Shown here: in pieces, positions 55,765-61,625 of the stretch | Position numbering within the stretch: position 1 is the stretch's first letter | Layout of the letters: the number at the start of each line of letters is the position of its first letter | IMG/VR virus record: IMGVR_UViG_3300030107_001040 | Location: 1-64,000 of that record | Direction: 5' to 3' (one strand) | Length of the DNA: 64,000 nt | Origin: a virus | Translations under genes and position numbers: made by a program | The notes under the pieces: generated by a model | What the model saw: the letters and a program-made list of their open reading frames with translations, nothing else | Told to the model about the DNA's origin: nothing | The model's database searches: none

Positions 55765-55915
55765 GGGAAACAAAGGAGGTTTCTTTCTAGTCTGACAAGT
55801 AGGGTTCAATCATTTTGAATACGGAATACCAGCAATGGTACACTTCTTATATGATTACTACAAGAAGCAGACACATGACGAAAGAGTAATGCACCGCCCC
55901 CTCTTTTTGTTTCTC
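55765..55915 (+). ncRNA. Candidate multi-branched ncRNA A
   Basis: About 15-bp terminal stem, inner GTCTG/CAGAC helix closing three hairpins; no ORF in the track. Confidence 0.55.
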
Positions 55916-55931
55916 TCACCTTATCACATAC

Positions 55932-55982
55932 GAGGAGATGGATGTGCCTCTCGGTTCGCAACCGAAGAAAGAACTAACATCC
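55932..55982 (+). promoter_or_regulatory. Candidate pseudoknotted leader element
   Basis: GAGG/CCTC stem, loop GGATGT pairing with ACATCC, inserted TCGGTT/AACCGA hairpin. Confidence 0.45.
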
Positions 55983-56009
55983 GCTAGCAATTTAAGGAGG
56001 TTACACGAG

Positions 56010-56339: not shown

Positions 56340-56765
56340 ATGAACTACAACACTTACGAAGTTCTATTAGGACGTGACAACGGTTACAACAAAACTGTTC
56401 ATGTCCATGACTGTATGTACGAGGATGAGGCAAGACTACTTGCTGAATCACAGTATGGTCTTTCTGCTTTAAGGGTGTTGTATCAAGGCAGAACTGACCA
56501 GCAAAGAACACAGGATGAGTTAGCACCACCATACTATCAACCTAGAGGTTCTCTCTGGTCAGGTTTAGCAGTTCCTTCAGTATTGCTAGGACTCGTGGGT
56601 GTTGTTTTAGTTGTGGAATTCTGGTGGGTGTTTCTACTAGGAGCAGGAGGAGTAGCAGGTTATAAAGCATATCGTGACCGTCCTAACTTAGGTAAAGATA
56701 CTACTGAGTATGAGGAGGAAGACGAGGAGGAAATGACACTAGATGAGTATTTGAACTCAATTTAG
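56340..56765 (+). CDS. Hypothetical membrane protein
   Basis: Two hydrophobic segments, acidic tail. Confidence 0.7.
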   Translation: MNYNTYEVLLGRDNGYNKTVHVHDCMYEDEARLLAESQYGLSALRVLYQGRTDQQRTQDELAPPYYQPRGSLWSGLAVPSVLLGLVGVVLVVEFWWVFLLGAGGVAGYKAYRDRPNLGKDTTEYEEEDEEEMTLDEYLNSI

Positions 56766-56835
56766 ATATGTGTAGATTGTCAGTGGATCAGCACCAAAAT
56801 GCCTAAATAGTAGCAGAGTTATCGGAGGTGTTAAA

Positions 56836-57144: not shown

Positions 57145-57678
57145 ATGTTTACTGAGATCTTTGAAGACGGCAGTCTAACCAACTATATCGGCACTAACGT
57201 GCAAGACCCTTGGCAGTCCACCCCATTTGAAGGATATGTCCACATGAGTCCTAAGCAGAAGGGTGAGTTTGGTGAAAGGTTCGTGACTAAGTATTTTGAG
57301 TTACAGGGATCAGGAGTCAAGAGGGCAAAGACATCTACAGCAGGACATGATAGAGTTGTTGACGAGATACTAACAGAGATCAAGTTCTCTCTTGCTACAC
57401 GTGACAGAAAAGGAGGAGTCAAGAAGGACTCATTCATCATCAACCACGTATCTAAGGACAAGGACTGGGAGAGATTAGTTTTCTTTGGCATCAACCCAGA
57501 CAACAGCAGCAGATTGGTCTGGTTCACTAAGGGAGATTTCCTTGCACACCTTGAGTCAGATGAGTGCTTGTTTGCTCATCAGCAGGGAGGCAAGAGCATA
57601 GAGAATGACGACTTCATTTGCACTAAAGTTAAAGATCTGCTAGAATGTGACTGGGTTAAGTCTGTGGAGGTATGGTAG
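57145..57678 (+). CDS. Putative PD-(D/E)XK restriction-like endonuclease
   Basis: KGEFGE helix, HD...EIK motif; overlaps the downstream methyltransferase. Confidence 0.55.
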   Translation: MFTEIFEDGSLTNYIGTNVQDPWQSTPFEGYVHMSPKQKGEFGERFVTKYFELQGSGVKRAKTSTAGHDRVVDEILTEIKFSLATRDRKGGVKKDSFIINHVSKDKDWERLVFFGINPDNSSRLVWFTKGDFLAHLESDECLFAHQQGGKSIENDDFICTKVKDLLECDWVKSVEVW

Positions 57679-58397
57679 ATTTATTATATGGTGACTGCTT
57701 AAAACTGTTACCTAATTTGCTTGATGATAGTATTGATATGTTACTGGTAGATTTACCGTATGGTACTACTGCTTGTAAATGGGATAGTGTGTTACCACTT
57801 GACAAACTATGGGAGCAATACAATAGAGTATGTAAGAAGGATGCCGCTATGGTATTCACAGCAGCACAACCATTTACTACTGTCTTGGCATCATCCAATA
57901 TCAGTAATTTCAGGTATGAGTGGATATGGGAGAAACCGCAGGGAACTAATCCTATGAACTCTAAGATCATGCCACTAAAGGCACATGAGAATATATTGGT
58001 ATTTTATAGAATTAAACCAACATATAATCCTCAAATGTGGTATTCTACTCCTTACAGTGGGTTCAGTTCTGATACTGCTAAGATAGGTGAGGTCTATGGT
58101 CAGCAGCAGTCTAAGCATAGAGATAATCCTGAAGGATCACGCTACCCTAAGACAGTATTGAAATTTAAACAAGAGAAGGGACAGCACCCAACACAGAAAC
58201 CAGTCAAGTTGATGGAATATTTGATTAAGACCTATACTAACGAGGGTGATACAGTATTGGATAATACTATGGGATCAGGCACGACTGGAGTGGCAGCAGT
58301 TGACACTGGTAGAAACTTCATTGGTATGGAGAATAATAGAGACTACTACCAGACAGCAGAGAATAGAATTAATCATCCTATCAGGTCTCTACTATGA
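57672..58397 (+). CDS. DNA amino-methyltransferase (beta class, probably N6-A)
   Basis: DLPYG, HPTQKP, LDNTMGSGTT. Confidence 0.92.
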   Translation: MVDLLYGDCLKLLPNLLDDSIDMLLVDLPYGTTACKWDSVLPLDKLWEQYNRVCKKDAAMVFTAAQPFTTVLASSNISNFRYEWIWEKPQGTNPMNSKIMPLKAHENILVFYRIKPTYNPQMWYSTPYSGFSSDTAKIGEVYGQQQSKHRDNPEGSRYPKTVLKFKQEKGQHPTQKPVKLMEYLIKTYTNEGDTVLDNTMGSGTTGVAAVDTGRNFIGMENNRDYYQTAENRINHPIRSLL

Positions 58398-59365
58398 AGG
58401 ATACTATTTTATATGGAGACTGTAGAGAAACACTGCCAGCATTTATAGACAAAGCACGAATGTGTGTCACCTCACCACCATACTACGGATTAAGAGACTA
58501 TGGTGGTAAGGATGAGCAGATAGGGCAGGAGCAGTCACCAGAAGAGTATATTGACCAGTTAGTACAAGTGTTCAGGAAGGTTAGAGACTGTCTTACAGAT
58601 GATGGCACCTTATGGGTTAATATTGGTGATTCATATTATAATTATAGACCTGGAAAAGGTCAGGCACTAAACAAGCAGTCAGTCAGTAAGACTAAGCAGG
58701 ATTTACCAGACGAGTGTCCACGTAGAGGAAACAAATTAGAAGGACTCAAAGAAAAGGATTTAATCGGCATCCCTTGGATGTTGGCATTTGCTCTACGTGC
58801 AGATGGATGGTATTTGAGGCAGGATATTATATGGCACAAACCTAATCCCATGCCAGAGTCAGTCAAGGACAGATGCACTAAGGCACATGAGTATATTTTT
58901 CTATTCAGTAAAAATAAGAAGTATTTCTATGACAACGAAGCAATCAAGGAACCTGCAAAGGACTGGGGAACCAGAGACAGATCAAAAGGAAAGTATCACA
59001 ACGAGGGAACAGGACTGCAACCGCATACAGGTCTTACAAAATCATATCCAACAAAAAATAAACGATCTGTCTGGTCAGTAACTAACAAACCATACAAGGG
59101 ATCACATTTTGCAGTGTTTCCACCTGACCTGATTGAACCATGTATCAAGGCAGGTAGTGAGAAGGGTGATGTGGTATTAGATCCATTTATGGGATCAGGC
59201 ACAACTGGTATGGTAGCGAAACAGTTAGGCAGATACTACCTAGGATGCGAACTGAACGAGGACTATAGAAATTTGATAGAGACACGTGTGTCGGATAACA
59301 AAGTGGTACAAATTTGTGACAAACCCGTAACAAACGGGTTGAGTGACTTGATTCAGTCTGTATAA
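58394..59365 (+). CDS. DNA amino-methyltransferase (beta class, probably N4-C)
   Basis: TSPPYYGLRDY, WHKPNPMPESV.DR, HFAVFP, LDPFMGSGTT. Confidence 0.93.
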   Translation: MKDTILYGDCRETLPAFIDKARMCVTSPPYYGLRDYGGKDEQIGQEQSPEEYIDQLVQVFRKVRDCLTDDGTLWVNIGDSYYNYRPGKGQALNKQSVSKTKQDLPDECPRRGNKLEGLKEKDLIGIPWMLAFALRADGWYLRQDIIWHKPNPMPESVKDRCTKAHEYIFLFSKNKKYFYDNEAIKEPAKDWGTRDRSKGKYHNEGTGLQPHTGLTKSYPTKNKRSVWSVTNKPYKGSHFAVFPPDLIEPCIKAGSEKGDVVLDPFMGSGTTGMVAKQLGRYYLGCELNEDYRNLIETRVSDNKVVQICDKPVTNGLSDLIQSV

Positions 59366-59418
59366 TGTGAGGAGGCAGCACACCGTTGCCTAAATGTTCA
59401 AAAAATCATCATTTTAAA

Positions 59419-59748
59419 ATGACAGCAACGACCTTGACTACCCCTTCAACATCTAAAACAACTAGAAAAAGAAGGTCTAGGAAGGCAAAGACTACTCCAC
59501 TAAATAGAACACCTAAGACTGAGGTAATTACTGTGACCGAATCAACCGCACCTGCCAGAGTCCGTCCAGAGAAACCAAACCTAACTTGGGAAGACTACAG
59601 AGATGACGCTAAAGTCAGATATGAGATTCACCAGTATGAGGTTCAGGAATTATGGAACGACTGCAAGTGGGTTTATCAACAGTCACTACCATACGTCACT
59701 AAGGGTTTCAACTACGTGAGAGATAGATTCAATTCCTTCAAGAAGTAA
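59419..59748 (+). CDS. Hypothetical protein
   Basis: ATG at 59419; basic low-complexity N-terminus. Confidence 0.65.
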   Translation: MTATTLTTPSTSKTTRKRRSRKAKTTPLNRTPKTEVITVTESTAPARVRPEKPNLTWEDYRDDAKVRYEIHQYEVQELWNDCKWVYQQSLPYVTKGFNYVRDRFNSFKK

Positions 59749-59761
59749 TCCGCATTTCAAA

Positions 59762-59804
59762 GTGTCACATGTCCCCTCTAACGAGGGGATTTTTCATGTA
59801 CAAT
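59762..59804 (+). promoter_or_regulatory. Early-type promoter with embedded terminator hairpin
   Basis: GTGTCAC, TCCCCTC/GAGGGGA plus Ts, TACAAT at 30 nt. Confidence 0.7.
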
Positions 59805-59827
59805 GAAATTATTCAGAAGAGAACCGA

Positions 59828-61060
59828 GTGACAACACTGAGACCACATCAGCAACGTGCATACGATAAGATGAACACAGCAGTATGTGGTCAGGTTATTG
59901 TTCCTACTGGTGGTGGCAAGACTTATATAATGATACAGGACTGCATCAGGAGATTAAAGACTAGGCATGATGACAGAGTGATCGTGGTGGTGGCACCTCG
60001 TATATTATTAGCAAACCAGTTGAGCAGTGAGTTCACTGGTCTATTAGATGATGATATAAATGTATTACACGTGCATAGCGGAGAAACACATTTTGACAGC
60101 ACGACTAATGCGGAGGAGGTAGCGCAGTGGGTAAGTGATAGGACTGGTAACAGTATAATATTTACCACTTACCACTCCTTACCACGTATTGTCAAGAGTG
60201 CTATACAGATTGATACCATATATTTTGATGAAGCGCACAACGGATGCGGAAAGAAGTTTTTTGAGGGCATTTTGAATACTGCTGAATATGCGAAGAGAAG
60301 ATTTTACTTTACTGCTACACCTCGTATAGGTAGAGGCACCAGCAAAGAACGTGGTATGAATAATACTACTGTATGGGGTGAAGTGTTAGAGCAGGTTGAA
60401 GCACGTGAACTGATTAACAGTGGTGCTATACTTCCACCGAAGGTCACACCATTTGAGACTGATCGGACTCGTGATAAGATTAACGCTCACGAGGTTGACG
60501 CTAGTAACCTAAAGGACATCATTAAGCAGTTTGATTCTAATGCCAAGGTATTAGTAGCAGCACCGAGCACTAGGATACTATGGAACATGCTCACTAAGAC
60601 TGATATTCTTGACTGGTTCAAAAAGCAGAATTATGACGTGATGCACATCACATCTAAGCATGGTGCCTACGTTAATGGCAAGAAGGTAGGAAGAGAATCA
60701 TTTTTTGATACCTTGTCAGACTGGGGTAACAGCAACCGCAGATTTGTGGTATTCCATTACAGCATATTGTCAGAGGGTATAAATGTACCAGGATTGACTC
60801 ATACTGTATTATTGAGGAATTTACCTATTATTGAAATGGCACAAACCATAGGTAGAGTTATCAGAGTTCATCCTGAAGATAGGAAGGATGTAGAAGATGG
60901 TATCATACCAGCAGCGCAGTTCACTTTATACCGTAAAGGTTATGGTAGTGTTACTGTTCCCTTGACTGGTAAGTATGGTGCCAAGATCGCTCAAAGATTA
61001 GAGCGAGTGGTTACCGACATATTTGTAGAGGGAAGACCACCAACTGCCTACACATCTTAG
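59828..61060 (+). CDS. SF2 DExH helicase (type III restriction Res-like)
   Basis: LRPHQ, PTGGGKT, DEAH, TATP, LSEGINVP, QTIGRVIR. Confidence 0.92.
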   Translation: MTTLRPHQQRAYDKMNTAVCGQVIVPTGGGKTYIMIQDCIRRLKTRHDDRVIVVVAPRILLANQLSSEFTGLLDDDINVLHVHSGETHFDSTTNAEEVAQWVSDRTGNSIIFTTYHSLPRIVKSAIQIDTIYFDEAHNGCGKKFFEGILNTAEYAKRRFYFTATPRIGRGTSKERGMNNTTVWGEVLEQVEARELINSGAILPPKVTPFETDRTRDKINAHEVDASNLKDIIKQFDSNAKVLVAAPSTRILWNMLTKTDILDWFKKQNYDVMHITSKHGAYVNGKKVGRESFFDTLSDWGNSNRRFVVFHYSILSEGINVPGLTHTVLLRNLPIIEMAQTIGRVIRVHPEDRKDVEDGIIPAAQFTLYRKGYGSVTVPLTGKYGAKIAQRLERVVTDIFVEGRPPTAYTS

Positions 61061-61115
61061 GACAGTTTGCAAAGTGAACACATTTTCCCCCACTGTCCCC
61101 TTGCTTTGCTATTAT
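61060..61115 (+). promoter_or_regulatory. Early-type promoter motif
   Basis: GGACA-N10-TGAACAC, about 29 nt, TATTAT. Confidence 0.5.
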
Positions 61116-61120
61116 ATAAA

Positions 61121-61273
61121 TGTTGAGGGATACGTGGTTCTACTGCCCAAAACTCATTTGTGGGGTTATCCTACTAAGATATGAGGAGTAGGGGTTCAGG
61201 TGTAAGCGATTCCCAGTAGGTAAATTTGGTCTCTTGGGTGAAACCCATTGAAGTTAGACCCACTCTCTCAACA
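61121..61273 (+). ncRNA. Candidate multi-branched ncRNA B
   Basis: 10-bp terminal stem plus six internal helices and a loop-loop complement; no + strand ORF in the track. Confidence 0.6.
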
Positions 61274-61308
61274 CCCCAAACCATGATCTTATTCAAGTGC
61301 ATTACCAA

Positions 61309-61416
61309 ATGACTGAAGAGTGTTACAAGTTGCTTTGCAACCCTACTCCGATCATCAAGTACTATTTCTTGACTGGTATCGGATCTTATCAACCACGCAA
61401 GGAGGAAAAGAAATGA
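61309..61416 (+). CDS. Micro-ORF (35 aa)
   Basis: MTEECYKLLCNPTPIIKYYFLTGIGSYQPRKEEKK, ATGA-coupled to the next gene. Confidence 0.45.
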   Translation: MTEECYKLLCNPTPIIKYYFLTGIGSYQPRKEEKK

Positions 61417-61625
61417 AATCCGCAGTATTTCAAGTTCGCATCCAACTAGATGATGAGAACGATCCGATCAACCCAGTTCACTTATGCGAAGAGATTCAAG
61501 CATATTTGAACTCTTGGCACTCTCAACTGGACGAGTCCACTGACGAGTATCAGGATGCTAGAGTTGTAGGATACAAGTTTGAATACGACAAGTTTCTACC
61601 ATTCACTGCTCAGGAGGAATACTAA
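61413..61625 (+). CDS. Hypothetical early protein
   Basis: SD AAGGAGG, ATG at 61413. Confidence 0.7.
   Translation: MKSAVFQVRIQLDDENDPINPVHLCEEIQAYLNSWHSQLDESTDEYQDARVVGYKFEYDKFLPFTAQEEY

Follow-up and report, generated by a model that had tools for sequence, protein, structure and literature searches.

The window analysed here is a stretch of 64,000 nucleotides (IMG/VR record IMGVR_UViG_3300030107_001040, positions 1 to 64,000), taken from the 101.6-kb record of a T4-like cyanomyovirus whose closest isolates are the Prochlorococcus phages P-SSM2 and P-SSM5. Positions 57672-61060 are taken up by two neighbouring N6/N4 DNA methyltransferase genes and a helicase gene of superfamily 2 (SF2). 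The helicase gene (59828-61060), which encodes ResIII, DEAD and Helicase_C domains, is followed by a 352-nt gap without genes, and within this gap sits a structured RNA element. Downstream of the element is a 141-nt spacer (61272..61412, + strand) that is not conserved and gave no matches among 160 related loci; it leads to an SD sequence, AAGGAGG, and to the ATG at 61413, which starts a 70-aa ORF and opens a series of small + strand ORFs. No terminator was called 3′ of the element, either in the window or in the related loci. The P-SSM2 copy (56700-56817), a minimal form of 118 nt, lies 3′ of an N6A methylase gene, in a gap that carries no annotation. A helicase gene is found on the other side of the element, downstream of it, in contigs L003, L021 and L052, which indicates that cassettes have been shuffled around the element. 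Elsewhere in the window, a glutamine riboswitch aptamer (RF01739), which scores 38 bits where 35 is the gathering score, is present at 140-183, adjoined by a tRNA-Asp at 6-80, and a tRNA-Thr is present at 2226-2299.

A −10 hexamer of the sigma70 (early) type, TATTAT, is located at 61110..61115 on the + strand, giving a predicted RNA start at about 61121-61123. It was not listed by a simple promoter scan because it has no −35. A −10 hexamer with at least 5 of 6 matches ends exactly 7 nt before the outermost helix of the element (P1) in 37 of 74 unique members of the family described below, forming a sharp peak with none comparable elsewhere. The sequence-only reading had placed the RNA directly behind an early-type promoter and had started it at the predicted transcription start; the promoter geometry agrees with both predictions. 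An imperfect palindromic box, GGACAGTT..AGTGAACAC (61060..61081, + strand), abuts the helicase stop codon and is a candidate operator. In 23 of the 74 members a TG[TG][CA]AC box starts 45-49 nt before P1, often within a GACAGTT..AACTGTC palindrome. Upstream of most members (L033, L040, L067 and others) a palindrome of the form GACAGTT-N4-AACTGTCAC stands about 30 nt before the −10 hexamer, and the spacer between the two often carries a GC hairpin and a T-run. The palindromic box looks like an operator common to a class of early promoters. A TAAAGTG-type box abuts P1 in 18 of the 74 members, with no promoter at a workable distance, and another RNA module precedes the element in 10 of the 74. 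A position at the predicted primary 5′ end is therefore the usual one for the element, but has exceptions.

The fold was defined by a covariance model, R1, of 117 positions, 30 pairs and six helices, built on 25 compact aligned members (alignment A2). Window positions 61123-61271 (+ strand) match model positions 1-117 with 105.4 bits (E 5e-24). As the window copy is among the 25 training rows its match is partly by construction, which is not so for 100 other matches. The molecule, all of whose parts are given here on the + strand, is closed by P1, in which TTGAGGGA (61123..61130) pairs with TCTCTCAA (61264-61271); all eight pairs show double changes and 97.5% of the cells are paired. P1 has 8 bp, optionally 10, the outer TG/CA pair being dispensable. 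The segment that follows (61131..61139) consists of a bulge, TAC (2-3 nt in the family), the 5′ strand of the 3-bp helix P1a, GTG (61134-36), and the junction nucleotides GTT (61137-39). The P1a 3′ strand, CAC (61261-63), is continuous with that of P1 (together 61261..61271), and GTG/CAC is replaced covariantly by ACG/CGT in relatives; GGTT at the P1a/junction boundary is invariant among the aligned relatives. The 6-bp helix P2 branches off after GUU, with CTACTG (61140..61145) pairing with CAGTAG (61214-61219; 5 of 6 pairs with double changes, 98.9% paired), and its 3′ side continues into GUAAAUUU. The P2 3′ strand and the joining strand J2/4, GTAAATTT, together make up 61214..61227, and TAAATTT of J2/4 is invariant in alignment A2. 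P4 (GGTCT 61228-32 with AGACC 61256-60) surrounds P5 (TGGGT-GAA-ACCCA, 61235-47), the whole spanning 61228..61260. P4 is 100% and P5 99.5% paired, double changes occur in both helices, and GGTGAAACC is invariant in this region.

In the resulting fold, P1, P1a, P4 and P5 make up a rod, from which P2-P3 branches off at a three-way junction. No linker separates P1a from P4, and P1-P1a-P4-P5 is therefore probably a single coaxial rod ending in the invariant GGUGAAACC hairpin. P2 and P3 are contiguous on their 5′ strand, and their 3′ strands are separated by a 20-nt bulge, J3/2 (TTCAGGTGTAAGCGATTCC, 61195..61213 in the window), which is 19-20 nt long and nearly invariant. The variable P3 domain (61146..61194) comprises P3 itself (CCC 61146-48 with GGG 61192-94; 3-4 G-C pairs in the family), an internal loop AAA/AGTA, and helix P3a (CTCAT 61153-57 with ATGAG 61181-85), which closes a hairpin, GTGGG-GTTAT-CCTAC (61160-74).

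Much of this architecture had been drawn in the sequence-only reading, and every string that it quoted is present in the window at the positions given. Its pairing of the molecule's ends and its multibranch core are borne out by covariation in P1 and by the three-way junction; the outer helices P1, P1a, P2, P4 and P5 all covary in relatives; and the two linkers that it left unpaired proved to be the most conserved parts of the family. The interior of the side branch has to be redrawn. The proposed hairpins CCCA..TGGG and TCCTACT/AGTAGGG do not hold, for in family members the CCC is paired with the GGG that immediately precedes J3/2. The CTCAT and ATGAG segments had been interpreted as kissing loops, and instead form the nested helix P3a, which closes a 23-nt sub-module containing the hairpin GTGGG-GTTAT-CCTAC. 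At other loci and in other modules the same sub-module is closed by ACTCAT/ATGAGT, GCACA/TGTGC, CGGATT/AATCCG or GGA/TCC, and where the last three of these closing helices are found the partners of the proposed kissing hairpins are absent. Locus L021 carries the same P3 insert with a sixth pair in P3a, and the nested CTCAT/ATGAG helix is likewise part of the minimum free energy fold computed for the window copy.

Evidence that the helices are maintained came from 93 distinct sequences, in which 97.7% of the cells at paired positions are paired and compensatory double changes occur in 19 of the 30 pairs. The observed value was reached in none of 500 shuffles, and when one partner was slid by 1-3 columns as a control the paired fraction fell to 34-53%. 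The alignment contains about 60 G-U cells, where the opposite strand would have A-C, and the element is co-oriented with its flanking genes in every case; together these fix the + strand. Folding of the single window sequence was not significantly better than that of shuffled controls (z = −0.64 for the + strand and −1.10 for the reverse strand), and folding energies are unremarkable (z from −0.6 to −2.4). As a single sequence folds no better than chance, the evidence for the element is comparative. From these alignments we conclude that window positions 61123-61271 (+) almost certainly represent one copy of a real, conserved structured RNA.

About 45 nucleotides are near-invariant yet unpaired, and are found in the J3/2 bulge (20 nt), J2/4 (GUAAAUUU), GUU and the P5 loop (GGUGAAACC). 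J3/2 reads GGUGUAAGCG. A first set of members was collected by means of J3/2 itself, so that its invariance in that set is circular. A second set was therefore considered, collected by an anchor in J2/4 and P5. In this J3/2-independent set the 20-mer is exact in 121 of 145 members; the others differ at one of two positions, with the exception of one U-for-C change (UUUAGG). J3/2 is thus retained in members gathered without it, and its conservation is real. Two alternative pairings, J3/2 to the 5′ strand of P1 and J2/4 to the loop of P3, were rejected, as neither is kept across P3 variants. A 9-nt complementarity of J3/2 to a universal segment of 16S rRNA was discounted (chance probability ~0.15; the rRNA part is paired). 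The only antisense target of J3/2 in the 101.6-kb record of the phage is the element itself. Many relatives have an ATG within GATATGTGG at which a mini-ORF could begin; this reading was also rejected, the ATG being absent from the window and from several variants.

Members range from 111 to 329 nt in length, and the entire difference lies inside P3, which accepts inserts of up to ~220 nt made of other recurring RNA modules. In most of the long forms P3 begins with a GAA/AGUA internal loop, which we take to resemble the loop-E motif.

Searches with R1 of the IMG/VR loci fetched gave 127 matches, the window copy and 126 others. The independent J2/4 and P5 anchor identified members in at least 145 IMG/VR contigs, besides P-SSM2 and P-SSM5, and the 20-mer of the long linker J3/2 was exact in more than 120 IMG/VR contigs among the matches listed. 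BLAST matched the 3′ half of the element to P-SSM2 and P-SSM5 and to four marine virus records derived from single cells. A single copy is present in each of the following: the record from which the window comes, the complete P-SSM2 genome (252 kb), a 100%-complete 202-kb UViG and three contigs of ~100 kb. L018 was the sole contig seen with two copies (1219-1336 and 2128-2257, − strand), which lie ~900 nt apart with one ORF between them, the second being more divergent (60 bits). As judged from these sequences, the family is an uncatalogued structured RNA, normally single-copy, of P-SSM2-like T4-type cyanomyoviruses.

At the gathering threshold, Rfam 15 matched only two tRNAs and the glutamine aptamer in the whole window, all away from the element. 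With E values up to 10, only two noise matches to miRNA models were obtained in region 60900-61500, and Rfam gave nothing in 12 related loci. No known class of self-cleaving ribozyme was matched at the locus. The R1 match and the lack of Rfam 15 matches at this position bear out the proposal of an unannotated structured RNA on the + strand. Possible cellular homologues were rejected as chance: in 596 Gb (185,579 prokaryote genomes) five exact 19-mers were found against ~4 expected, and none matched R1. An unfiltered covariance model search of T4 positions 68000-75000 gave a best score of 10.5 bits (E 0.2) for a 26-nt hairpin outside rnaC and rnaD, which rules out homology with these two RNAs. 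The core motif is printed in no searchable paper, and the cyanophage and non-coding RNA literature that was searched describes no such RNA; a fragment of the element may be included among the ~8,500 candidate RNAs catalogued from IMG/VR (Fremin 2023, PMC10690425).

The regions that follow the element are diverse. In 16 unique members P1 is followed by an ATG at a distance of 22-33 nt (in the window the distance is 141 nt), and the genes concerned come from at least 10 unrelated families, most of which encode small proteins without a known function, in addition to a helicase. At other loci further conserved RNA modules come before any start codon. Both the regions after the element, at many loci, and the P3 inserts are assembled from a few recurring modules. 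P-SSM2-like contigs have a leader of ~450 nt made up of four modules; the element is the second, and the last is tRNA-like. This last module (L006 4485-4567, − strand; similar in L004, L042, L047, L053 and L039) has a T-arm (GTGGTTCAATTCCAC) and an acceptor-like stem, with the other arms replaced by a long insert, a shape that recalls the tRNA-like T4 rnaC. The L006 module gave a weak Rfam tRNA match (20.4 bits) and no ARAGORN calls.

Several named systems resemble the element in part. Like the manA (RF01745), wcaG (RF01761), glnA/glutamine (RF01739) and PhotoRC-II (RF01717) motifs, which are orphan cis-regulatory motifs of T4-like cyanophages mostly without proven function (Weinberg et al. 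2010, PMC2864571), it is a conserved, covarying RNA of marine cyanomyoviruses, found comparatively and in a 5′ UTR-like position. Unlike them, it precedes unrelated genes, begins at a predicted transcription start and has a swappable P3, and their models give no match at this locus. T4 rnaC (species 1) and rnaD (species 2) are, similarly, RNAs of T4-type phage of 120-140 nt that are co-transcribed with genes, occur once per genome and are of unknown function. However, rnaC is tRNA-like with a T-arm, which the element is not, and both T4 RNAs lie in a tRNA cluster, whereas the element is near methylase and helicase genes. The PeSL cassettes of T4-type phages, reportedly an early promoter with a simple stem-loop present many times per genome, share with the element an early promoter joined to a structured element, a plastic early region and shuffled neighbour genes; the element differs in being single-copy (one copy in six genomes or large contigs) and in having at least six helices and an invariant core. 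With the TPP, purine and hammerhead class of RNAs it shares a three-way junction, near-invariant joining nucleotides and one variable peripheral stem. P4 sits directly on P1a and the joining strands are unequal (GUU against 8 nt), as in three-way-junction aptamers and ribozymes. In contrast to that class, the element has no expression platform, known ligand, cleavage site or Rfam 15 match.

The reading that we consider best, while giving it rather less than an even chance, is that the element is a cis-acting 5′-leader domain of an early transcript with a specific partner. Transcription would proceed from the early sigma70-type promoter, with P1 beginning at the first nucleotides of the transcript; the element would remain joined to the downstream early message and act in cis; and its compact conserved core would bind a conserved partner (a protein, the ribosome or a small molecule), binding of which would set the stability, processing or translation of the transcript. 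Position favours such a leader, as P1 lies at the predicted +1, no terminator follows and a short unstructured run leads to the start codon. The single copy per genome, a core independent of the downstream gene and the ~45 near-invariant unpaired nucleotides argue for a specific partner rather than a passive hairpin. Against this reading, one would expect to meet a general leader or stabiliser on a large number of early operons, yet there is one copy per genome; the genes that follow lack conservation, which leaves no sign of gene-specific regulation; the 18 members without a promoter at the right distance and the 10 behind another RNA module do not fit it; the start codon in the window is 141 nt away, past an unconserved spacer; and the folding energy of single sequences is ordinary. 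Were the element simply a structural cap that shields the 5′ end of the message from 5′-end-dependent RNases (RNase E/J), the start of P1 at the predicted +1 would be explained, but a plain hairpin would suffice and ~45 unpaired nucleotides would not need to be nearly invariant. This, together with the ordinary stability and the single copy, makes a cap that has no specific partner improbable. It is harder still to believe that the locus does not act as RNA, and is instead a small protein gene (for example the 72-codon minus-strand frame at 61174-61392) or a DNA-level site. Open frames do overlap the element on both strands, and minus-strand frames over it cluster together across loci; however, the P4-P5 domain is 47, 48, 49 or 50 nt long in close relatives, so that any reading frame would be broken, the flanks of the frames are unrelated between loci, and compensatory double changes are found in 19 of 30 pairs.

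The facts that point to a specific partner (single copy, gene-independent core, invariant nucleotides) also fit a stable RNA processed from the transcript. Such a trans-acting RNA would be cut out just after P1 and would function as an RNP that might, for instance, bind or sequester a protein of the host or the phage at an early stage of infection; its status would be comparable to that of T4 RNAs C and D. In addition to the single copy, the predicted promoter of its own and the core kept whatever gene follows, the variable peripheral domain resembles that of other housekeeping RNAs, and in P-SSM2-like arrays the element adjoins the tRNA-like module (20.4 bits in L006), an arrangement suggestive of processing of the RNase P type, like that of the T4 tRNA/rnaC/rnaD cluster. 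On the other side, neither a terminator nor a conserved 3′ tail follows P1, an ORF often begins 22-33 nt later, J3/2 has no antisense target in the 101.6-kb record of the phage, and homology to T4 rnaC/rnaD is lacking; we regard a trans-acting RNA as possible but doubtful. A riboswitch-type sensor, in which a metabolite or ion reporting host state would sit in a pocket made by the invariant junctions and its binding would tune expression of the early operon, appears quite unlikely. A conserved aptamer-like domain with invariant junctions is present in a predicted 5′ UTR, the three-way junction, near-invariant joining strands, covarying stems and peripheral stem of variable length are as expected, and cyanophages do carry riboswitches, as the glutamine aptamer at 140-183 of this same window illustrates. 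No expression platform tied to P1 was found, however: a terminator is lacking, and 22-33 nt (141 nt in the window) separate the end of P1 from the ATG, which keeps P1 clear of the ribosome binding region. The downstream genes, of at least 10 unrelated families, share no function, and no Rfam riboswitch model matched with E up to 10. The sequence-only reading had described the complexity of the RNA as ribozyme- or RNP-like, and the ~45 near-invariant unpaired nucleotides are compatible with a core of either kind. A new self-cleaving or catalytic RNA could help to cut the multi-module early leader into pieces; both the 111 nt of the minimal form and the count of unpaired invariant positions fall within the small-ribozyme range, and the element occurs in arrays with other unexplained structured modules, as known ribozyme classes likewise do. 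As half of the members are already at the predicted 5′ end of the transcript, where cleavage is unneeded, and neither a candidate cleavage site nor an Rfam 15 ribozyme match was found, catalysis of this kind seems highly improbable.

Whichever way it acts, a single-copy RNA with ~45 near-invariant unpaired nucleotides, present in at least 145 environmental contigs and predicted to be made early, very likely has a specific role. Myoviruses of the P-SSM2 type rank among the most abundant Prochlorococcus viruses. A farther-reading interpretation, which we think unlikely as it stands, is that the invariant three-way-junction core represents a functional class of RNA that is new, either a ribozyme or an aptamer recognising a host protein or a signal of host state, deployed by abundant ocean cyanophages in the first minutes of infection, as part of a set of interchangeable, nestable modules including ncRNA A that would form an RNA-level early programme. 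Because cultured P-SSM2 carries the minimal 118-nt version, the element is a good candidate for biochemical work on a ligand, a protein partner or catalysis.

The relationship to ncRNA A, a second candidate structured RNA of the window (55765-55915), is closer in one respect and looser in another than the parallel architecture that had been proposed. The centre of ncRNA A (window ~55801-55859) is the P3 insert module of L050, L002, L010 and L046, and the P3 sub-module of the window's own element is nested inside that ncRNA A-type module in L149 and L018. Thus the two RNAs do not merely parallel one another; they are different families that draw on common building blocks. Swappable, nested modules of this sort imply that phage non-coding RNA evolves by domain shuffling.

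Two further modules were seen in these regions. In the window, another conserved module, ACGAGGAGATGGATGTGCC..ACATCCGCTAGC, comes after ncRNA A at 55931-55990, immediately ahead of an SD sequence, and its pairing can be represented as an H-type pseudoknot; both it and ncRNA A recur in dozens of related loci. A module of ~50 nt, CTGC[TG]..CCCC-TTTGGTAGTTTC-AGGGTT..GGCGATAGGAAACTACC, lies 3′ of the element in about 20 loci (L007, L015, L040 and L054 among them). It had no Rfam match; its two stems interleave as an H-type pseudoknot, and covariation is visible in stem 1.
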